64,000 bases of DNA from positions 672,001-736,000 of the forward strand of contig CAWCKJ010000004.1 in assembly GCA_963796105.1 (NCBI GenBank). Reading direction: 5' to 3'. This DNA comes from a candidate division FCPU426 bacterium. Its GTDB lineage: Bacteria; Oederibacteriota; Muellerivitia; Muellerivitales; Muellerivitaceae. Position 1 is the first letter of the stretch; every line of letters starts with the position of its first letter. Position numbers and translations under genes: made by a program. Shown here piece after piece: positions 6,514-58,077 of this stretch. A model generated the notes under the pieces. The model was not told the origin of the DNA, did not search any database, and saw only the letters and a program-made list of their open reading frames with translations.

Positions 6514-6530
6514 TTGTCCACGATGGGGAG
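6514..6530 (+). repeat. TGTCCA element left arm; overlaps RBS of next gene
   Basis: TTGTCCACGATGGGGAG immediately before TTG 6536. Confidence 0.7.
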
Positions 6531-6535
6531 GCCAT

Positions 6536-6985
6536 TTGAAAAGGGATACTGAAAATTCAGTTAAACGGCTTGATTTAATCTGGTATTCCTTCAGTTTTGT
6601 TTTTTTGGCAATTGTTACCGGCTTTTTTAAGTTTTCCGCGCTCAGTCATTTGCTTTTTACCCCCTATATTTTTTTGATGGGATTTTTTTCATTTACGTTC
6701 GGAGTTTTAAAAGTTGTTTTTTTCAGAAGCGGGAAATTCCTTCAATTAACCACGTCAGTGAAAATCAGGGGTTGGTTCGCCTTCCTTGCCTCAATGACCG
6801 CCGCCTTTTGGTGTCTATTCAGTTTTAATTTTCCTTGGTTTTATCGTTTGGCCTATTTTCTGTTCTGTTCATTCTTCGGCTTCCTTAACGGCCTAAGCCT
6901 ATATAAGGGTGTGAGCCTTGCCTTTTTTCATTGGGTTGACCAAAAGTACGGAGAATCCATCCGGAGGTTAATATTAAGAAAATAA
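6536..6985 (+). CDS. AT-rich hypothetical membrane protein (about 4 TM)
   Basis: Phe-rich hydrophobic segments; GGAGG RBS. Confidence 0.65.
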   Translation: MKRDTENSVKRLDLIWYSFSFVFLAIVTGFFKFSALSHLLFTPYIFLMGFFSFTFGVLKVVFFRSGKFLQLTTSVKIRGWFAFLASMTAAFWCLFSFNFPWFYRLAYFLFCSFFGFLNGLSLYKGVSLAFFHWVDQKYGESIRRLILRK

Positions 6986-6996
6986 TGCTAATTCCC

Positions 6997-7051
6997 TTGT
7001 TCACGACTGGGAGATCCTCGTTCCACAACGAGTATCAGTGGGATTGGACAG
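6997..7051 (+). repeat. Complete TGTCCA...TGGACA hairpin element
   Basis: TTGTTCACGACTGGGAG...CTCGT-TCCACA-ACGAG...GGGATTGGACAG. Confidence 0.7.
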
Positions 7052-7160
7052 GGAGTAACCCCTGATTCAGCCCCGAATCGATGGAACTTTCACCCCCTTT
7101 GTTTCGTCCTATAATTGTTCCAGCGCTTTGTGATCTTGTTTTCAAGAAAGAGGTAAAGCT

Positions 7161-7976
7161 ATGAAACCAACCCCTGGTTTTCCGGTTCTGTTAAAAACGG
7201 CGTTGACCTTAATAGTTGTCTTTTTATTCAGCGGATGCGCGCAACAGCCCCTGCCGCCCCTCTTCAGCCTTTACGGCTACCAGCGCCTCGCCGTCATTCC
7301 CTTTGACAACAATACGCAGGACCCGGCCTTGGCCACCGCACTGCAGGATGAATTGACCAGTGAGATCGTGAGCCTAAACGCCCTTCCCGTGATCGAGGCG
7401 GGCCAGGTGGCGGCCTACCTGAAGTCCATCCCCGCAAAAGCTTCCGACGTACTGACGGACCAGGGATTGCGCCAAAATATCGTCCAACATTTCAAATGCG
7501 ACATCCTATTAGTGGGGTCGGCGGAGGGATACAACGAGTTCCTCAAGGATGAATCGCCTAATAGGTCGGGTTCAGGGTGGGGCTTTTACACGGATCGCAA
7601 GGTCGTCGTCACTAACAGCGCCAAGCTGATGGACCCTGCCAGCGGCAGTCTGCTATGGTTCCGGAACAAGAACTGGGGCGCAAGTTGGCACAATACCTGG
7701 AATCCCCTTCCCGTTCCGGAAACCGTGTTCCTTCCGGGCCTGCTAGGGCAGTTTGTCGATTTGGTTAATTTGGTGAAATACCGGCTGGACCAAAAAGTGG
7801 ATGTTGAGCCTCCCTTTGCCGACGAAACCTATGGTGGCGGCCTGATCTATCCCCAAAGCACCGCATTTACCCGGCTTCGCCAGAAGGCCATTGTGTCCGC
7901 GGTGGGTTCCATGGTGGATGACTTTCAGGGCCATTACAACTGGACGCCAGGGTTAAGGACAAACAACGGCCAATAA
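7161..7976 (+). CDS. Lipoprotein of CsgG/LpoB/GNA1162-like fold
   Basis: FSGC lipobox; RLAVIPFDN; DILLVGS; AKLMDPASGSLLW. Confidence 0.7.
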   Translation: MKPTPGFPVLLKTALTLIVVFLFSGCAQQPLPPLFSLYGYQRLAVIPFDNNTQDPALATALQDELTSEIVSLNALPVIEAGQVAAYLKSIPAKASDVLTDQGLRQNIVQHFKCDILLVGSAEGYNEFLKDESPNRSGSGWGFYTDRKVVVTNSAKLMDPASGSLLWFRNKNWGASWHNTWNPLPVPETVFLPGLLGQFVDLVNLVKYRLDQKVDVEPPFADETYGGGLIYPQSTAFTRLRQKAIVSAVGSMVDDFQGHYNWTPGLRTNNGQ

Positions 7977-8045
7977 GGCCGGAAGTAAAAAATCCGCTAA
8001 TTATCAATTTCCTTCGGTTAAATAATGAAAAGCAATGGTTTTGAA

Positions 8046-8122
8046 TTGTCCACGACGGGGAGGGTTGTACAACAATTATGAATTTTGAATTAATAGACTT
8101 GTCCACGACGGTGAGGTGGAAA
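8046..8122 (+). repeat. Two minimal TGTCCA elements
   Basis: TTGTCCACGACGGGGAGGGTTGTACAA (8046-8072) and TTGTCCACGACGGTGAGGTGGAAA (8099-8122). Confidence 0.7.
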
Positions 8123-8160
8123 GAACAAATTTTTGGTTGATATTTGTATCCTTCCTTGCC

Positions 8161-8191
8161 AAAAGGTATATACTTTAGGTATATACCTTTT
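8161..8191. promoter_or_regulatory. Palindromic operator of the TA pair
   Basis: Perfect 13-bp inverted repeat AAAAGGTATATAC-TTTAG-GTATATACCTTTT directly before the RBS. Confidence 0.7.
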
Positions 8192-8203
8192 AGGAGTTGA
8201 AAA

Positions 8204-8443
8204 ATGACCAAAGTCCTGTCACTTAAAATAAAAGGCGAGATTTTCGAGGATGTGGAATCCATAACCAAAATCCTTCAAATGCCCCGGAACGCCTATATCA
8301 ACGAGGCGTTGAATTTTTACAATGAGTTCAACCGCCGAAAAGGGCTCAGGAAAAAACTGCTGAAGGAATCCCTGCTCACACGCAAGAACTCCATGGACGT
8401 CCTGAGTGAGATGGAAAAGCTCGAGGAAGCCACCCTCGAATGA
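8204..8443 (+). CDS. Ribbon-helix-helix antitoxin
   Basis: LSLKI...IFE......MPRNAYINEAL; overlaps the mazF start (ATGA). Confidence 0.8.
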   Translation: MTKVLSLKIKGEIFEDVESITKILQMPRNAYINEALNFYNEFNRRKGLRKKLLKESLLTRKNSMDVLSEMEKLEEATLE

Positions 8444-8850
8444 AGATCAGGAAATTTAATATTTACCTGGCCGATCTAAGCCCGCGTTTCGGCACAGAGC
8501 CGGGAAAAACAAGGCCGGTCGTCGTTCTCCAAACCAACCTTTTAAATGACGCTCAACACCCCAGCACCATTGTTTGTCCTATCACCACTAATGTTATCCG
8601 TGGGGCTGAAATACTTCGGGTGCGCCTTTCCAAAAAGGGAGTGGGTCTCCCTGGGCCGAGGCCACGAGCCGAAGCCCGAGGTTTGGGTGTGCCGGTTCTT
8701 ACAGGAACCGGCCTTAAAAAAGATTCCGATGTATTGGTCGATCAAATACGCGCTATTGATAACCGCCGGTTCGTAAAACAGTTGGGTGAATTAAACCCGA
8801 TGGATAAGGCAAAGTTGATTGAAAACCTTAAGATTATCTTATTCGAATAG
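8440..8850 (+). CDS. mazF: PemK/MazF family toxin with an in-frame insertion
   Basis: LADLSPRFGTEPGKTRPVVVLQ...CPITT...DQIRAIDNRRF. Confidence 0.9.
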   Translation: MKIRKFNIYLADLSPRFGTEPGKTRPVVVLQTNLLNDAQHPSTIVCPITTNVIRGAEILRVRLSKKGVGLPGPRPRAEARGLGVPVLTGTGLKKDSDVLVDQIRAIDNRRFVKQLGELNPMDKAKLIENLKIILFE

Positions 8851-8888
8851 TCGAAAAAATCGATTCTCTTTCCCTCGGATCTGGCGCT

Positions 8889-9149
8889 TTGGTGATTGGG
8901 GTTATATCTGGGGTTTTAGCTCTTTTGTTTTCTTTTATTAAGAGAACACGTATTAAATGGCTACTCGTATTATTAGCCCCTTTTATTCTGACTGAATTCA
9001 TTTACTGGACACCTGTTTGGTTTGCCCACCAACCTTCGGGGGAATATTCATCATGGGAGGGTTTGTTTATTGTGCCCTGGTATGGGGTAGGTGCTTTTGC
9101 GTCTGCTTTGGTTTGTTACTTGGTTGAAAAATTGAAAAATAATAACTAA
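8889..9149 (+). CDS. Small AT-rich membrane protein (start uncertain)
   Basis: Three hydrophobic segments; frame is open back to ~8833 without a good start or RBS. Confidence 0.55.
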   Translation: MVIGVISGVLALLFSFIKRTRIKWLLVLLAPFILTEFIYWTPVWFAHQPSGEYSSWEGLFIVPWYGVGAFASALVCYLVEKLKNNN

Positions 9150-9203
9150 GCGATGAAGTGGATAAAACTATTTACCCCAAAGGTTTAAAATTGACGTTAG
9201 AGG

Positions 9204-9233
9204 TTGTTCCTTATGGGGACCCGTCGTGGACAG
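9204..9233 (-). repeat. TGTCCA element, reverse orientation
   Basis: Reverse complement CTGTCCACGACGGGTCCCCATAAGGAACAA. Confidence 0.65.
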
Positions 9234-44945: not shown

Positions 44946-44963
44946 CTGTCCACAACTGAGAGG
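44946..44963 (+). repeat. TGTCCA element left arm
   Basis: CTGTCCACAACTGAGAGG. Confidence 0.55.
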
Positions 44964-45022
44964 CTTTTCAATTATGGGAAAACCCGCCTTGACGATCCCT
45001 ATTTATTGTATATACTAAAATT

Positions 45023-45304
45023 ATGAGATTTGATTGGAACCCCGCCAAGGACGAAGTTAACTTTAGGAAACACGGTGTTTCATTCAAAACAGCTATCACG
45101 GCCTTTGATGATCCCTGGGCCTTGGTGGCCGCTGACCCTAAGCATTCAACCACGGAGTCCAGGGAATGGTTGATTGGGGAAGCTGATGGTGGAAGGGTTC
45201 TGGTGATAGTTTTCACCAAACGCTCACAAGGCCAGGTCTGCCGCATCATCAGCGCAAGGCCGGCAAGCCGTCGGGAAAGGAACCGTTATGAAGAGCTCAA
45301 ATGA
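45023..45304 (+). CDS. brnT: BrnT family toxin
   Basis: RFDWNPAK...N.RKHGVSF..A...F.D...RIISARPA. Confidence 0.92.
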   Translation: MRFDWNPAKDEVNFRKHGVSFKTAITAFDDPWALVAADPKHSTTESREWLIGEADGGRVLVIVFTKRSQGQVCRIISARPASRRERNRYEELK

Positions 45305-45578
45305 ATTTCCGTTTCACAAAGCAAGAAGGTTGACTCCCGGAGAAGTGGAGAAGAACAGCCGGGCAATCGAACATCACACTGGCAAACCACGCCGTCCACG
45401 CGGCCGGCCGGCTAAAGAGCCTCATGAGCTTTATTTCCCGGTTTCCATCCGCCTCAATCCGAAAGCCTTGGAATGGGCCAAGAAAATTGGCCGGCAAAAA
45501 GGCATTGGATACCAAACAGTCATCAACGAAGCCTTATTGAGTGTTGCTGAAGAAAAGAAACTTTCTCACGCGCATTAA
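45288..45578 (+). CDS. brnA: BrnA family antitoxin
   Basis: RGRP...VSIRL...LEW.K...GIGYQTVINEAL. Confidence 0.9.
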   Translation: MKSSNEFPFHKARRLTPGEVEKNSRAIEHHTGKPRRPRGRPAKEPHELYFPVSIRLNPKALEWAKKIGRQKGIGYQTVINEALLSVAEEKKLSHAH

Positions 45579-45590
45579 GGATGTCCAGGG

Positions 45591-45692
45591 CTGTCCACGA
45601 AGGGGAGACCATCGCACCGCAGCGATGGTTCGTTGCCGCCCATAGCTTGGTGCAGGCCTCGCTCCGCAGTGCAGGGCAGGGGTCGTGGACAA
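45591..45692 (+). repeat. Long (~100 bp) TGTCCA...TGGACA element
   Basis: CTGTCCACGAAGGGGAG-ACCATCGC-ACCGCA-GCGATGGT...GTCGTGGACAA; inverted copy at 48635-48736. Confidence 0.85.
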
Positions 45693-46033
45693 AAAAAGGG
45701 GGGTTTATAAAAGACGCGAATTTTCAATAGTTATCCTGGTTGAGTTCAAAATGGAAATTGGTTGAGGGATGGTTTTTAAGTCCATTGACAAATATTGGAC
45801 AAGTGGATTTTTAAAACCGAAGGCGGGGTTAGAAGAAATTATTTTTTCGATTCAACTGAATGGGTTTTAAAAATTTTCGTTCGAGCAAATTTTTGGTTGA
45901 CGGGGACTCTCAAAATCAAGCAGTTAAATCCCTAAAAATGCCTGTTTCTATTGGCAAGTAGAGAAGCGGACGCATATAATTCCTCCTCGCCCTTTAGGAA
46001 GTTAGGAAGTGCCCGGCGTCCCATGAGGAAAAA

Positions 46034-47599
46034 TTGATTCAATCATTCAAACGTTACTTAAAAGTCATTTCCTTTTTATTTGCAATCTTCATCACCCTCC
46101 CAATCTTAGCCCCTCATCAATTGCTTGCTAATTCGCTTCCTCTTTCGATTTCAGGTAACCAAATCGTCACGAGCGAGGGCTGTACCCTGCGCTTAAGGGG
46201 GGTGGATGTCTCCGGTTTGGAATATAGCCCTTACGGGGATACCGGCACGGGAGCGCCCACGACCAACATCAACGGCACGACCATGACCGATTACGTGGCT
46301 ATCGCGGCGGAGGCAGTCACAGCCTGGCATTGCAATATCATCCGCCTTCCTTTTAACCAGGACTTTTGGTTCGGCTGCTCGAACTCCAAGGGAACGCCCG
46401 ACCAAACCGCCTACCAATCCGAAATTCAAGCGGTCGTCAATTACTGCTCCCAAAACAACGCCTATGTGGACCTGGACCTTCATTGGTCCGGTAACTACAT
46501 AGGTACCTCCCCCACAACCCCCTGCTCCGGAGGAGGATGGGGCTCAGTCACTGCCCAGCAAATGATGCCGGACTGGAATTCGGTCACCCTCTGGGCCTCG
46601 GTGGCTTCGCAATTCGCCAATAACCCGGCGGTTCTATTTGACCTCTTCAATGAGCCTTACTTCGTCACCTGGGATGTTTGGCGAAACGGAGGCACAACAT
46701 CTTGGTCCTTCGTCTACCAGGGCGTTACTTATTCAGGAACCTTCAATACACCGGGCCTTCAAACCCTCCTCACAACCATACGAAACACCGGGGCCAACAA
46801 CGTTGTGGTGGCAGGCGGGTTAAACTGGGCCTATGACTTAACGGGAATAGCCAATGGAAGTACCAGTTGCAACGGCAGCAATTGCGCCCTGACCGATACC
46901 ACATCTGGGAACGGCGTCCTTTATTCGGCCCATGTCTATTCCAGCAAGGGTTCCACAACCGGTTGGGACACCTACGTCACATCCGCCAGTTCCTCCAACG
47001 CGGTCATCATTGAGGAATTCGGTGCCTCCGTAACGGACGCGGCCGGTTGGGATAATACCGCGATTAGCTGGTTCAACGGTTCGAACGCCAACAACTATGT
47101 TTACTCCGCCATGGCCTGGGCCTTCAGCCCCGATGTCAGTCCTTCCCTCATCACGAGTTTCAACGGGTATCCCACGACTTCCTACCACGGCGTCCCGGTC
47201 TCAACCTGGCTCGCGAACATCAGCTCCACCGGCACCTGCCCCACCTGGACCCCCACGCCCTGCGGATATCCCGGCCCCACCTGCACCCTCACTTTCACTC
47301 CCACCCCGACCGCGACACCCCTCCCCGGAATCGGCCCCGCGAAAGCCCTCCCGACTATCATCAAGGGCGCCCTAAGCTGTTGCGCCTTCAAGGTGCCGGA
47401 ATTGAATGCCACCTTAAAAGCCAGGGTTTATACCCTGACCGGCGAACTGGTCGCGTCAATCAATGGGACCCCCGGGACCAGCCAATGCGTCTGGTGCCCG
47501 AAAGGAAGCGCCAGCGGGCTTTACCTGTCGGTGGTGGATGAGACGCAGTCCAATGGGAATTTCAGCCGGGAGAAACTGAGGGTTTTGGTCATCCATTAA
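46034..47599 (+). CDS. Secreted glycoside hydrolase family 5 (cellulase-like) with Thr/Pro linker and CTD-like C-terminus
   Basis: LRGVD.SGLEY, NIIRLP, DLHW, FDLFNEP (acid/base), HVY, IEEFG (nucleophile), AWAF. Confidence 0.92.
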   Translation: MIQSFKRYLKVISFLFAIFITLPILAPHQLLANSLPLSISGNQIVTSEGCTLRLRGVDVSGLEYSPYGDTGTGAPTTNINGTTMTDYVAIAAEAVTAWHCNIIRLPFNQDFWFGCSNSKGTPDQTAYQSEIQAVVNYCSQNNAYVDLDLHWSGNYIGTSPTTPCSGGGWGSVTAQQMMPDWNSVTLWASVASQFANNPAVLFDLFNEPYFVTWDVWRNGGTTSWSFVYQGVTYSGTFNTPGLQTLLTTIRNTGANNVVVAGGLNWAYDLTGIANGSTSCNGSNCALTDTTSGNGVLYSAHVYSSKGSTTGWDTYVTSASSSNAVIIEEFGASVTDAAGWDNTAISWFNGSNANNYVYSAMAWAFSPDVSPSLITSFNGYPTTSYHGVPVSTWLANISSTGTCPTWTPTPCGYPGPTCTLTFTPTPTATPLPGIGPAKALPTIIKGALSCCAFKVPELNATLKARVYTLTGELVASINGTPGTSQCVWCPKGSASGLYLSVVDETQSNGNFSREKLRVLVIH

Positions 47600-47655
47600 G
47601 GCGGGGGCGGCAACGAACCATCGCTGCGGTGCGATGGTTTCCCCGTCTTGGACAG
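47600..47655 (-). repeat. Half TGTCCA element, reverse orientation
   Basis: Reverse complement CTGTCCAAGACGGGGAAACCATCGCACCGCAGCGATGGTTCGTTGCCGCCC. Confidence 0.85.
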
Positions 47656-47772
47656 CCAAAAGTAGGTTAATGGTCACTGCTTCCCGCTGACCTGTCGCCC
47701 GAAGCCCTTTGGGCGCAGGGTGAGGAGCGGGAAGCCAGACCCCGTTTTCTCTTCTTTATTCCAAGAATGGGT

Positions 47773-47982
47773 TCAGGCCCACTTGAGGACGGGTTTCTTG
47801 CGGGACTAAACGCAATCCCGCAAGTACATATTGATCAGGTTTTGGTAGGGGATACCCTCCGTATTGGAAAGCTTTTTAAAATACTCTATAGTTTCTTCCT
47901 CAATGCGGATGGTAACCTGTCTTTTCAACATTTTAGTGTATGGATTTTGTTTGGATTTTGAAAAATCGTATTCTTCCCTCAT
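47773..47982 (-). CDS. brnA: BrnA family antitoxin with in-frame TAG at codon 59 (47806-47808)
   Basis: Manual translation MREEYDFSKSKQNPY...VTIRI...YFK...GIPYQNLINMYLRDCV*SRKKPVLKWA*; ATGA overlap with brnT. Confidence 0.85.
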
Positions 47983-48269
47983 GTTCCCCCTCCATATTGT
48001 TTTCGCTCGTTTTTGGACGCCTTTCTTGCCGAGATAATCCGTATGATCCTGTCATTGGAGCGATAACAATGGCAAACCAGGAGCATATGTAGTTTCGAAC
48101 TTATCCCCAGAAGGATGAAGCGGTCTTCCTCATCTGAGTGATCAGGATCCCGGATCAACCGCGCGTTATCATCATAAAAAACAGATTTGGCTTCCTCAAA
48201 AGAGACACCATGTTTCTTTTGATTGGCCCTATCTTTTATGGCATCCCACCTAAAAACGAGTGGTGTCAT
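47979..48269 (-). CDS. brnT: BrnT family toxin
   Basis: FRWD..K..ANQKKHGVSFEEAKSVF.D...DPDHSDEEDRF...IRIISARKA. Confidence 0.93.
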   Translation of the reverse strand: MTPLVFRWDAIKDRANQKKHGVSFEEAKSVFYDDNARLIRDPDHSDEEDRFILLGISSKLHMLLVCHCYRSNDRIIRIISARKASKNERKQYGGGT

Positions 48270-48376
48270 ATTTACACTATAATTATATTATAATTATAAA
48301 TCAAGGGCTGTGGATAGAGCGCGAAAATCGTCAGGAAAATCAGGTAGAAATTATTGTTCTCTTTTTTCAATCCGAC

Positions 48377-48430
48377 CTGTCCACGATCCCTGCGCCAAGC
48401 CGGGGGCTTGACGCTCCCCAGGCTGGACAG
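48377..48430 (-). repeat. Complete short TGTCCA...TGGACA element
   Basis: Reverse complement CTGTCCAGCCTGGGGAGCGTCAAGCCCCCGGCTTGGCGCAGGGATCGTGGACAG. Confidence 0.85.
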
Positions 48431-48438
48431 GCAACGGC

Positions 48439-48615
48439 TTAAGGTTTATAAACGAGCTTCGCTTTTAGGTACATGGCGATCGCTCCGACAACCCAGCCCG
48501 CGAAAAATATAGCGACGGGCTTGGCTTTTTCTTTACCGCCCATGAGCCAAAATCCGCCGAGAACGACGGCCATCACGATGACGACCGCGATCCCCCAACT
48601 TACGAATGGATTCAT
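48439..48615 (-). CDS. Small two-TM protein
   Basis: GGAGG RBS before ATG 48615; two hydrophobic helices. Confidence 0.7.
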   Translation of the reverse strand: MNPFVSWGIAVVIVMAVVLGGFWLMGGKEKAKPVAIFFAGWVVGAIAMYLKAKLVYKP

Positions 48616-48634
48616 ATTGCAACCTCCAATTTCA

Positions 48635-48736
48635 TTGTCCATAATCCCTGCACTACGCCGCAGTGCGAGCCCTGCACCAAGCTATGGGCGGCAACGAAAC
48701 ATCGCTGCGGTGCGATGGTTTCCTCGTCGTGGACAG
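48635..48736 (-). repeat. Long TGTCCA...TGGACA element, reverse orientation
   Basis: Inverted near-copy of 45591-45692. Confidence 0.85.
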
Positions 48737-48755
48737 CCTCAAGAAGGTCGCTCCT

Positions 48756-49484
48756 TTAATTCGTTAAATGAATTCTTTCCATCGCCACCTTAGGAAGATT
48801 TTGATAAAAATTAATTGTACATTCTATTTGGCCATTGCGGTTCAATAGCCCTACACGCCCCAAAGCGAAGGTTGACTCTTTAGCAAAAGTAAAAAAAGCA
48901 TAATTGTCCACTTCAACCTCTACGCTTTGACTGTTTAATTTCTTTAGGTGAAAATCCCCACCAGAATAAATCGATTTATAAATAAGTACTTTTGGTTCTG
49001 AAAAGCCTTCAGAAAACACACCCAAAGCCGAATCAGGTGCTAAGTCCGAAGGTATTCTCCGCACAAATATTAGTTCTTTCATTCCGTCTTTATTTAAATC
49101 TACAAGGCAATATTCCATAACATTAAATCCAAGATAATAAACTTTCATATCTTTTATAAGAAAGGTATTGCCTGCGTTTAATTGCATATTTTGTTTCTCA
49201 TCGACTACAAATATCTGGCCTTTTAAACCCTTCCAAACTTCCTTAGGCGTTACTTCTTTGACAGGAAATTTTTGACCCTTTTCAATTAGGTGGTAATTCT
49301 TATCCCCGTTAAAAAACCATGCCTCAATTAGTTTTTCTGCTTTTAAATTTGAAATTAGTCCTGATTCAATCCTACGAGAAGCGACTTCTTCTGCGTTGAG
49401 TTTTCCTGTAAACAAATCATGATTGGAAAAAATCAATAATGCCATACCCAACCCAAGCAAAAGACTTTTCTTCATAAGTTTCAT
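48756..49484 (-). CDS. AT-rich secreted hypothetical protein
   Basis: Signal-like N-terminus; DLNKDGMKEL Ca-binding-like loop. Confidence 0.7.
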   Translation of the reverse strand: MKLMKKSLLLGLGMALLIFSNHDLFTGKLNAEEVASRRIESGLISNLKAEKLIEAWFFNGDKNYHLIEKGQKFPVKEVTPKEVWKGLKGQIFVVDEKQNMQLNAGNTFLIKDMKVYYLGFNVMEYCLVDLNKDGMKELIFVRRIPSDLAPDSALGVFSEGFSEPKVLIYKSIYSGGDFHLKKLNSQSVEVEVDNYAFFTFAKESTFALGRVGLLNRNGQIECTINFYQNLPKVAMERIHLTN

Positions 49485-49661
49485 TAGGGTCTCCAGGCTG
49501 GGCTCCCTTCGTTACACTCAGGGCAAGCTCACCTTCACGGTCACTACGATTTTATATCCAATATTTAAATCCTCCGACTTATAAAACCCTCGCGAAATCC
49601 CATTAGATTTAACGGAATTAGCCATTGAATCCCCCCATCTTTTCGGGCAAAGTGGGAAAAC

Positions 49662-51725
49662 ATGGAACCCAACACGTCTCATAAACACACCAACCGGCTC
49701 ATCCACGAGAAGAGCCCCTACCTGCTCCAGCACGCCCACAATCCCGTGGATTGGTATCCCTGGGGAGAGGAGGCCTTCGGAAAGGCCAAGCGGGAAAACA
49801 AGCCCCTGTTCCTTTCCATCGGCTATTCCACCTGCCACTGGTGCCATGTCATGGAACGAGAATGTTTCGAGAACGAGGAAATCGCCCGGTTGATGAACGA
49901 GCTTTTCATTTGCGTCAAAGTGGACCGCGAGGAACGCCCCGATGTGGACAAGGTTTACATGAACGCTGTAATCGTCCTGACCGGCCAGGGTGGCTGGCCC
50001 CTTAACGTTTTTTTAACTCCCGACCAGCGGCCATTCTACGGGGGAACCTATTTCCCCCCGGATGAGCGCTACGGACGGCCTGGGCTTCCCTCCGTGCTGA
50101 ACGATGTGGCCCGTGTTTGGAGGGAAAAATCAGGAGAGGTGGAAAAAGCCGGACAACAATTAACCGGTTTGATCTCCCCGCCTGTACTGAAAGCGCCCGC
50201 AAGCCTTCCGGGAGATCGGGTCATCAGCGAGGCCGTCCAGGCTTTCACCCGCATATTCGACCCCAATGAGGGCGGCTTCGGGAGCGCTCCGAAATTTCCC
50301 CAGTCCATGGTCCTGGGTTTTCTCCAGCGCGCCACCTGGGGAGCGACAGATACCACGGGATTTTCCAGGGTGGAATTGACGCTGGACAAGATGTCCCAAG
50401 GCGGGATTTACGACCAGGTCGGCGGGGGTTTCGCCCGCTATTCCACGGACGAGCAGTGGCTGGTTCCCCATTTTGAGAAAATGCTCTACGACAACTCCCT
50501 TCTGGCCCGGACCTATCTGGAGGGATACCAGGCCGTCCGCAAGGCGGAATACGCCAGGATCGCCCGCGAGATTTTCACCTACTTATTCCGGGATATGGCC
50601 GATCCCGCCGGGGGCTTTTACAGCGCCGAGGACGCCGACAGCGAGGGCGAGGAGGGCAAGTTCTACGTCTGGAAGCCGAAAGAGCTGAGGAATATCCTCG
50701 GTGAAAAAGATGGAGAGGCCTTTTGCTCGCTATACGGCGCCACCGAAGCCGGAAATTTTGAGGGCCATAACATTTTGCGCCTGAAATCAGATCTTCCTTC
50801 CGCCCTGAAGGCCCTGGGAAAAGACCAGGGCTGGTGGAAGGCCTCAAGGGAAAAAGTGCTCCAAGCCCGTTCCAAGCGCGTCCGGCCCCACCGGGACGAC
50901 AAGATACTCATGTCCTGGAACAGTCTTTTGATTTCCTCGCTGGCTTACGGCTATCAGGTACTGGGGGAGAAAACCTACCTCGATGCCGCTGAAAAGGCCT
51001 CGGATTTCCTGAGCCGGAACCTGATCCGTGGCGGCCGCCTGTTGGTTTCCTTCCGGGGAGGCCCCTCGAAAGCGGAAGGTTTCCTGGATGATTACGCCTT
51101 TTTCCAGGCCGCCCAACTGGACCTATTCGAGACCACCTTCAAGAAACAATACCTGGAAGAGGCCCTCCGGCTTTGGGACGGGATGAAGAGGCTCTTTTGG
51201 GATGAAAAGGAAGGGGGCTTTTACTTCACGGGTTCCGACCAGAAGGACGCCCACCGGCTCCTGACCCGCCTTAAGGAGGCCCATGACGGGGCGATCCCAT
51301 CGGGCAATTCCGTGGCGGCCATGAGCCTTTACCGGCTCGCGGAACTCACCGGCCGGAAGGATATCCGGGATGACGCTGAAGCCGTGGTGAAATGCTTCTC
51401 AGGACACTTAATAAAATCCCCGCCCATGTATCCCCAGATGCTCCAGGCCATCCAGTTCACAACCATCCCCCCCGCCGAGATCCTCGTGGTGGGCCCGCGC
51501 ACCGAATCCGAGGGCATGATCCGCGCGGTTTGGAAAAACTTCGATCCCAATAAAGTCCTGGTGTTTTGCGAGGAAACCCAAGACAAGGACCTAGCCCCCC
51601 TGGTTCCTTGGCTGGAAAACCGCCCTTCCCAGGATGGTAAACCCACCGCCTATGTCTGCAAGAATTACCAATGCCAATTGCCCACCACTGACCCCCATAA
51701 GATGCTGGAACTTTTAAGCCAGTAG
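49662..51725 (+). CDS. YyaL/SSP411-family thioredoxin-domain + alpha/alpha-barrel protein
   Basis: [47 protein letters not shown]. Confidence 0.95.
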
Positions 51726-51882
51726 TAAGCTTAAATTACTGGAAAAAGCGGTGAACCTGCCGGATACCCGTCGGAATCGGACCCCTACCGGCATTTCCGT
51801 CGGAACTCGGGATACCCCTATGCTGAGTCCACAAGGCGAAGCATGAGAATTGGGTGTGTTGGCGCCAAGATAATGGGCGCCA

Positions 51883-52289
51883 ATAACCTGGTGACACCCA
51901 CCGGCATTTCCGTCGGTAAACCAGGATAACCTGGTGACACCCACCAGCATTTTCGTCGGCAACCCAGGATAACCTGGTGACACCTGCCGGCATTTTCGTC
52001 GGCAACCCAGGATAACCTGGTGACACCTGCCGGCATTTTCGTCGGTAACCCAGGATAACCTGGTGACACCCACCGGTATTTCCGTCGGCAACCCAGGATA
52101 ACCTGGTGACACCCACCGGCATTTCCACCGGCAACCCAGGATAACCTGGTGACACCTACCGGCATTTCCACCGGCAACCCAGGATAACCTGGTGACACCT
52201 ATCGGCTTTTCCACCGGTAAACCAGGATAACCTGGTGACACTTGCCAGCATTTTCGTCGGTAAGCCAGGATAACCTGGTGACACCCAGG
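51883..52289. repeat. Tandem array of 43-bp units (9 full + 1 partial)
   Basis: ATAACCTGGTGACAC starts at 51883, 51926, 51969, 52012, 52055, 52098, 52141, 52184, 52227 and 52270; degenerate units at about 51755-51817. Confidence 0.95.
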
Positions 52290-52385
52290 TGGCTTTTGGA
52301 CAATAATCAGTAAAAATATTGACAGAAATCATACTTCTTTGGGCCGGTTTTTATTAATTTTATCCCCTGAAGCATATGAGAATCC

Positions 52386-57943: not shown

Positions 57944-58077
57944 TTTCACCACAGGGCCATTCGCACCGCAGCGAATGGCAGGGCTTCGGTAGCGCACAGA
58001 GTCACAGAGTTAAATCATTGATTTTTAAAGAAATTCTTGTGCTTTTTTCTGTGTACTCCGTGTACTCTGTGGTTCAA
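57944..58077. repeat. CACCACAG/CTCTGTGG inverted repeat element with ACCGCA-loop hairpin
   Basis: TTTCACCACAG-GCCATTCGC-ACCGCA-GCGAATGGC...CACAGAGTCACAGAG and CTGTGTACTCCGTGTACTCTGTGGTT. Confidence 0.75.

Follow-up and report, generated by a model that had tools for sequence, protein, structure and literature searches.

Rows of exchangeable gene cassettes on a fixed 28-bp site in a candidate division FCPU426 bacterium, with a shortened serine recombinase as their likely builder

Introduction

Integrons and clusters of attC sites lacking integron-integrases (CALINs), as described in the accessible part of PMC4889954, string together co-oriented single genes and toxin-antitoxin pairs at spacings below 4 kb, with a site just past the stop; their cargo is highly varied, and in many cases no enzyme is encoded close by. 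That part of the source gives the mechanism by which integron cassettes are first made as unknown. We analysed a stretch of 64,000 nucleotides (hereinafter the window) from a candidate division FCPU426 bacterium (GenBank assembly GCA_963796105.1, contig CAWCKJ010000004.1, positions 672,001 to 736,000). The genome that it comes from is designated G000 and its contigs C1 to C16. The window contains gene rows built on copies of a 28-bp site, and the rows of this genome and its relatives resemble integrons and CALINs in these features, and also in being targets of group II introns. They differ in that no IntI was found in G000 and there is no attC end, in that one fixed 28-bp palindrome takes the place of attI and variable attC, in that a candidate serine recombinase lies at the 3' end of the row and faces it, and in that BLAST comparison of row heads brought out no conserved promoter or leader.

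Two other described systems are close in part. The large serine recombinases LI/A118 Int (4KIS), Bxb1 and phiC31, so far as the accessible portions of their descriptions go, share with the candidate enzyme a catalytic domain, a long helix and a recombinase domain, and share with the 28-bp site a central asymmetric dinucleotide. The candidate has no zinc ribbon or coiled coil, its sites are identical and 28 bp long whereas theirs are 40-50-bp attP and attB, and it is associated with multi-cassette rows rather than with one integrated element. In the accessible part of PMC12907356, the pdif and chromosomal dif module islands of Acinetobacter likewise have 28-bp sites that bound accessory modules in chromosomal rows without an enzyme of their own. 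The Acinetobacter sites are copies of dif, the XerC/D site, and alternate in orientation, whereas the site described here has identical arms, is unrelated to the host dif-like site and is directly repeated.

We propose that the rows in the window are swappable cassettes with a 28-bp site, and that they were likely built by a shortened serine recombinase, of predicted activity, that has since been lost from G000. No cassette system based on a serine recombinase was described in the literature searched, most subscription papers and supplements being beyond reach.

A fixed 28-bp palindrome is the conserved unit

In most G000 copies the site reads TGTCCACGACGGG-GA-CCCGTCGTGGACA, with two 13-bp inverted arms and an asymmetric GA core (13-2-13). 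A profile scan of G000 gives 68 matches above 17 bits, compared with 5 in one block-shuffled copy, and 65 sites are left once reverse-strand echoes are removed. Neighbouring sites no more than 4 kb apart are co-oriented in 37 of 38 G000 pairs, the exception being the pair around a GH5 gene of the window. Among 562 unique sites, pairing of position i with position 29-i is found in 82-89% at positions 1-6, 51-64% at 7-10, 82-90% at 11-13 and 1% at position 14. Of these 562, 545 have a GA core, a frequency that is partly circular, since the core was itself part of the profile used to choose the sites.

A 16-mer pattern with one mismatch allowed is matched in 24/24 family genomes, at 3-114 copies each (reversed control, 0-3), and in the one other genome of the order. 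Seven of 15 more distant genomes have 1-11 matches, every one mismatched. Because the matches in G017 and G020 are scattered singles that may be due to chance, the 24/24 figure overstates the number of row-carrying family genomes. The exact 28-mer pattern occurs in 54 stretches of a species-genome collection, all within a few uncultured metagenome-assembled genomes, and at no fewer than, that is at least, 152 loci in metagenomes. Viral contigs gave 25 matches to a 17-mer, all without the right arm or a second site, which were read as chance.

An earlier note, made from the letters of the window alone, had proposed a gene-capture system on a variable-length, single-strand hairpin site that resembles attC but lacks its ends. 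The absence of RYYYAAC/GTTRRRY ends holds beyond the window, as they are not present in the consensus of 224 sites from relatives, and there is no Rfam match anywhere in the window. There is one 28-bp consensus with identical arms, with no distinct attP and attB. The conserved unit is a fixed, double-strand-type 28-bp site and not an attC-like hairpin, so this part of the proposal is not retained. The left arm of the site resembles DnaA boxes and the 5' ends of tRNA-Glu genes.

Cassettes are exchanged through the left part of the site

G000 and its relatives have 329 inter-site units with a median length of 768 bp. Site polarity is followed in 237 of the 248 units that contain a single open reading frame (ORF) of at least 90 aa, and the median distance from stop codon to site is 22 nt. 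The cargo is diverse: the 662 distinct proteins encoded beside sites make up 510 clusters. Of 45 picked G000 row genes that were scanned, 16 belong to toxin or antitoxin families by their matches and 18 have no match.

Sites reassort with respect to their flanks. Specifically, the upstream flank alone is common to 103 site pairs, the downstream flank alone to 111, and both flanks to 4 (the pairs are non-independent). Variants at site positions 16-28 track the downstream flank and variants outside the left end track the upstream flank, indicating that the exchange switch lies in positions 1-15. Cassette units have been exchanged between loci and between genera. The rows are integron-like arrays of exchangeable gene cassettes with a non-attC site. 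The core of the earlier proposal, gene capture on a non-attC site by a recombinase encoded outside the window, is supported by these swaps, as gene content differs between genomes with breakpoints inside the site.

A different origin of the swaps has to be weighed here. The 28-mer could be a non-autonomous repeat, of the miniature inverted-repeat transposable element (MITE) or repetitive extragenic palindromic (REP) kind, or else a recurrent regulatory site, and would come to lie behind the stops of horizontally acquired genes; homologous exchange between its copies would then produce the swaps. The 28-mer is palindromic and intergenic, as such a repeat would be, and G000 has Y1 HUH transposases (16 matches) and other hairpin repeats. 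Against this, the polarity of the site relative to genes and neighbours is near-fixed, and the two halves of the site are associated with different flanks instead of moving together. Nine of 31 genomes, among them G004 and G019 (each 99% complete), gave no Y1 match, and IS110-family recombinases were found in 6. A length of 28 bp is also short for homologous recombination. We consider this origin quite unlikely and retain site-specific exchange of cassettes.

Row-final sites have poorer right halves (median 15.1 versus 21.7 bits, n=46/140, p=0.002), and right-half-only matches precede 6 of 47 row heads, compared with 0 on the opposite strand; together, these observations support seeding at look-alike chromosomal sites. 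Several apparent secondary-site crossovers at 11|12 proved to be group II intron ends or probable insertion sequence (IS) ends and were not used to place the crossover. In both G000 (C3:17779-19301) and G002 (L380) a row lies beside the same ABC-transporter genes, in opposite orientation in the two, and of these two loci only that of G002 has the recombinase.

Group II introns target attC sites. The 28-bp site is likewise a target, of three intron families: one inserted after position 11 (5/6 unique copies), one near position 19 (4/9, with one more at 26) and one about 2 nt past the site (16/18). Site-linked introns at C7:118505, C4:35675, C4:39583, C4:832468, L383, L060, L173 and L366 are oriented as the cassettes are. 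The two at C4:35675 and 39583 measure about 0.7 kb and have no reverse transcriptase gene; the intron at L383 has one.

The long hairpin forms are composites of two repeats

Three full sites of the two main rows of the window are longer than 28 bp, and the earlier note had taken a 54-102-bp element with conserved ends and a variable interior as the basic unit. The conserved ends stand; the unit does not, as it is the 13-2-13 site and the interiors are secondary inserts. Long forms are a minority, with 10 full copies in G000 against 65 sites, and a strict pattern run over 31 genomes finds them in 6. The 22 unique long forms measure 51 (1), 52 (5), 53 (11), 76 (2), 84 (1) and 100 bp (2), mostly 28 bp plus multiples of 24-25.

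The insertion point is after the third base past GA. The insert, whose last bases are AG(T/G)G, pairs with those three bases as a hairpin. These 24/25-nt inserts are also present in an unrelated IS-like end, which has 25 plain and 17 insert-bearing copies and in several cases adjoins Y1 transposase genes, and in 8 further places, a ninth match being the inner insert of a long site. The same downstream cassette is found with either a short or a long site. When folding was compared with shuffles, one of three long forms was clearly stabler on both strands (z -3.8/-3.1) and the others gave -1.0 to -1.8; no common fold or favoured strand was found among the long forms. We infer that long forms are the 28-bp site into which a separate small hairpin repeat was later inserted, and the apparent attC analogue in the window is a composite of two separate repeats. 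An insertion three bases past the core likely weakens the right half-site.

The same features bear on whether the 52-100-bp forms could be folded single-strand substrates, like attC or the CTX-phi attP, which a further tyrosine recombinase would recombine with the 28-bp form. It is true that the inner stems differ in sequence yet pair, in five genera, and that an outer stem, small internal loop and inner stem recall the attC layout. However, the forms are confined to 6/31 genomes, have no consistent fold or strand, cluster at lengths of 28 + n x 24/25, are followed by the same cassettes as short sites, and owe their interiors to inserts that also occur in the IS-like end and 8 further places. 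Nor was an IntI found in G000, where the best match to TIGR02249 scores 67 bits against a cut-off of 265. Single-strand substrates are, in our judgement, very unlikely, and the composite structure is preferred.

REP sequences and bacterial interspersed mosaic elements (BIMEs) are hairpin repeats. The 24/25-nt inserts resemble them as short hairpins in intergenic and mobile DNA of a Y1-rich genome; repeats of this type would account only for the interiors of the long forms, and the inserts of the window have no Rfam match. IS-like ends, either plain or hairpin-inserted, lie beside Y1 HUH transposase genes of about 318 aa (for example C11:133291, C12:332332 and C4:1410107), and in these ends the insert tail pairs with the three preceding host bases. 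A hairpin with the AG(T/G)G ending is inserted at window 57961-58000 (C4:729961) and in 7 other places, several of which have in common a CAAGGGACG-like 5' side and CTTCGG on the 3' side.

A short serine recombinase faces the rows in relatives

Several row tails share DNA that codes for the end of a serine recombinase. An intact gene of 275-281 aa is present in G045, G042, G002, G001 (a relative of the same genus) and G018, and points at the row. All five proteins match PF00239 and PF07508 without the zinc-ribbon family PF13408, which is present in 2/2 long controls. We collected 19 clusters of such proteins (275-283 aa), 68-100% identical, with next matches at no more than 59%; all of them end at this length, directly after the recombinase domain. 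They form one clade with SH-aLRT support of 99 in a quick tree of 52 rows trimmed to 285 residues. The ratio of nonsynonymous to synonymous substitution rates (dN/dS) is 0.07-0.16 in 7 of 10 short-clade pairs, with dS saturated in the other 3, and by this codon comparison the gene is under purifying selection. Residues Y14, R16, S19, D87 and R88, which we take to be catalytic as in resolvases, are invariant in the clade. A structural model (predicted local distance difference test 79, predicted TM score 0.52) best matches serine integrase-DNA complexes.

The gene and the site are physically linked. All 12 of the short-clade gene ends that could be scored, from 7 genomes, have a site behind the stop codon (G045, G042 x4, G002 x2, G001, G019 x2, G046, and G018, where it is split by a group II intron), compared with 0 of 18 long relatives; two 5'-only G001 fragments and one long-relative row without flank were left out of this scoring. 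The gene end is 21-47 nt from the site and faces the row. The nearest relatives are 510-aa enzymes of about 55% identity, the genes of which end in tRNA- or tmRNA-like sequence (read by eye), and G000 also has a 510-aa long relative. In the 16-mer scan, motif matches number 43-114 in the four scanned genomes with the gene or a large fragment and 3-63 (median 8.5) in the other 22 of the order, related genomes being non-independent. No viral relative of the short recombinase was found, and the 121 plasmid records are all below 60% identity to it, the top 10 at 27-32%.

The enzyme gene probably travels on a mobile island: of five genomes, three encode ArdC near it, two have RadC there and one has a TraG-like ATPase. 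In G018 (L419), genes for WYL, helicase, MrfA zinc-binding and C5 methylase proteins lie beyond the recombinase and ArdC/RadC, an arrangement that resembles a defence island. G042 has one intact and three 5'-truncated recombinase copies (L389, L409, L414, L416), each with a site behind it, which suggests repeated arrival and decay of the platform.

The predicted mode of action agrees with published features of serine integrases. In the accessible part of PMC3783163, the recombinase domain contacts an area of 13 bp and the coiled coil is part of the zinc domain, and in that of PMC5499577 an integrase without its coiled coil becomes promiscuous.

A number of observations weigh against the short serine recombinase as the enzyme of these rows. 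An intact gene is present in only 5/31 family genomes, G006 and G023 have no short-recombinase match despite 63 and 51 motif matches, and G000 keeps only a 67-bp remnant of the gene, inside the C6 row; the recombinase search that the earlier note had suggested yielded a candidate beside rows in relatives, and only this remnant in G000. The 12 gene-plus-site copies are one clade and may therefore descend from one event rather than being independent. The coiled-coil-less integrase of PMC5499577 is, according to the same accessible part, inefficient, above all between molecules. Comparison of 45 row heads by BLAST, with no promoter scan, revealed no conserved promoter, leader or head gene. No excised circle was seen in the sole DNA read run, where four 151-bp pieces were found and no joints. 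The sole homologue found of the second brnT-brnA pair of the window (75% nt, G009) has no adjacent site. Finally, the crossover is bracketed only to positions 1-15, and a tyrosine-type 11-6-11 reading fits the same letters.

That last point leads to a solo Xer-like tyrosine recombinase, which would move the cassettes on an 11-6-11 site as in dif-module islands, with the short serine recombinase a passenger or acting elsewhere. The solo Xer gene is single-copy in 24/25 genomes of the order, which fits the distribution of the site better than the short recombinase does, and it was not found at E<1e-30 in 15 other genomes. In G024 (94% complete, 9 motif matches) it is the only PF00589 match. The length of dif is also 28 bp. 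Solo Xer was the first candidate and was lowered because the promoter of its gene has a palindrome of its own, TATAA-N6-TTATA, unrelated to the cassette site and present in 15/15 genomes examined (with one mismatch in two). This palindrome is single-copy in G000, and there is no cassette site near the G000 solo Xer gene. Furthermore, in the accessible part of PMC12907356 the Acinetobacter dif islands alternate C/D and D/C sites, whereas the sites here are direct repeats. Solo Xer as the mover is unlikely, in our view, and the short serine recombinase remains the preferred enzyme.

Across genomes, the outer arms of the solo Xer palindrome (G000:C3:369920-369945, L035; L073-L083, L328, L331, L334) covary around the constant TATAA-N6-TTATA core. 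G000 has no match above the XerD cut-off, and the solo Xer-like protein scores under the thresholds for XerC, XerD and XerA.

Other enzymes were rejected as movers. IS110 (6/31), resolvase-domain (12/31) and Y1 (22/31) proteins are not universal. A tandem xerC/xerD-like pair on C8, close to an end of the contig and next to an ATPase-like ORF, has the appearance of a mobile element. The remaining tyrosine recombinases, including gene trios, are not shared, G024 having one PF00589 match and G025 one intact. Tyrosine recombinase gene trios are present in G000 at C4:40640-43922 and on C1, C14, C15 and C16, one of them directly upstream of the cassette row at C4:35-39 kb.

Proposed mechanism and implications

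A recombinase dimer would bind the two 13-bp arms, cut at the GA core and exchange strands by rotation, and the asymmetric GA would fix orientation. Lacking both zinc ribbon and coiled coil, the enzyme could join any two sites, and a gene between two sites could therefore be excised as a circle. The circle would then re-enter at a further site, or at a chromosomal sequence that resembles one, which would seed new rows. The enzyme is likely brought in by a mobile island and later lost by decay, which would leave orphan rows as in the window.

On balance, we lean towards a broader proposal. A serine integrase without its zinc ribbon and coiled coil may have become a stand-alone, direction-free recombinase for a symmetric 28-bp site and thereby founded a second, independent kind of integron. 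Such a system would capture, excise and reorder single-gene cassettes across the order and leave orphan rows after decay of the island; three families of group II introns would exploit its sites as parasites, and the 24/25-nt hairpin insert would lock them.

If the enzyme is confirmed, this kind of system is new, and integron-style gene collection has evolved a second time with another chemistry, serine instead of tyrosine, on a double-strand site instead of a folded attC. Rows of this kind would escape searches based on IntI and attC. A 28-bp site and a 275-aa enzyme would make a much simpler system for asking how cassettes first arise. The enzyme would also be a natural compact serine recombinase without a zinc domain, which bears on what that domain contributes, and possibly a small genome-engineering tool. 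The contribution of the window itself is that its long hairpin forms are explained by a second repeat and that its rows are orphaned in a genome with only a remnant of the enzyme.

Cassette rows of the window

The two main rows of the window converge on a GH5 gene, and all of the elements that the earlier note had placed there were recovered, each with the polarity of its neighbouring genes. The plus-strand row begins with a degenerate site (44947-44974) that has a partial left arm, a GA core and a poor right arm; in G023, a similar degenerate copy precedes a homologous unit. It is followed by a cassette with a brnT-brnA toxin-antitoxin pair (45023-45578, plus strand; PF04365 and PF14384). Seven homologues of this pair were found in other genomes at 79-93% nt identity, followed by a full 28-bp site in four (13-15 nt past the stop), a degenerate site in one, an intron-split site in one and a partial left arm in one. 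Where the four have the full 28-bp site, G000 has a 100-bp long form (45592-45691, plus strand) that consists of the left arm, GA, about three hairpin inserts (28+72 bp) and the right arm. At the corresponding G001 locus the brnT-brnA unit is absent, and genes for 531-aa and 273-aa proteins occupy the interval from that same head site to GH5. A weak site-like stretch, GACGGG-GA-CTC, is present at 45884-45911, between the 100-bp element and GH5.

The GH5 cellulase-family gene (46034-47599, plus strand; PF00150) lies between the convergent rows. The earlier note had counted it as an array member. It is syntenic in G001 (77% nt), and a site-like match, a loose one, follows only 1 of 6 homologues; the gene is therefore a resident and not a cassette.

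The minus-strand row starts at a head site (49477-49504) with a GA core and a degenerate left arm in common with G001; homology to G001 stops within the right arm. The first cassette (48756-49484, minus strand) has a 242-aa orphan gene without a Pfam match, the sole homologue found of which (78% nt, G022) sits between two 28-bp sites. It is followed by a 100-bp long site (48636-48735, minus strand), which is the 28-bp site with about three hairpin inserts, and by a cassette for a small membrane protein (48439-48642, minus strand), also without a Pfam match. A site lies exactly 9 nt past the stop in 7 of 10 homologues of this gene, with differing DNA beyond it, and one further homologue (L039) has a site with a 1-nt insertion. 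A 52-bp long site (48378-48429, minus strand), 28 bp plus one 24-nt hairpin insert, separates it from the second brnT-brnA pair (47806-48269, minus strand; PF04365 and PF14384/PF12441), which is a probable cassette; Pfam confirms both pairs that the earlier note had named. The row ends in a tail half-site (47605-47654, minus strand) with the left arm, GA and one hairpin insert, which has no right arm and runs into the 3' end of GH5. Between the second brnA stop and this half-site there is a further GC-rich, hairpin-like element (47680-47735). Of the four cassettes in these two rows, three have counterparts next to 28-bp sites in other genomes.

A second row of the same system is located at 6515-9232 on the plus strand, with sites at 6515, 6998 (a 53-bp long form), 8047, 8100 and 9205; the DNA between its sites contains orphan genes and a PemK/MazF-type pair. 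Elsewhere in the window, a long tandem repeat with a unit of about 41 bp (51714-52330) directly follows a DUF255 gene and has repetitive ORFs in several frames.

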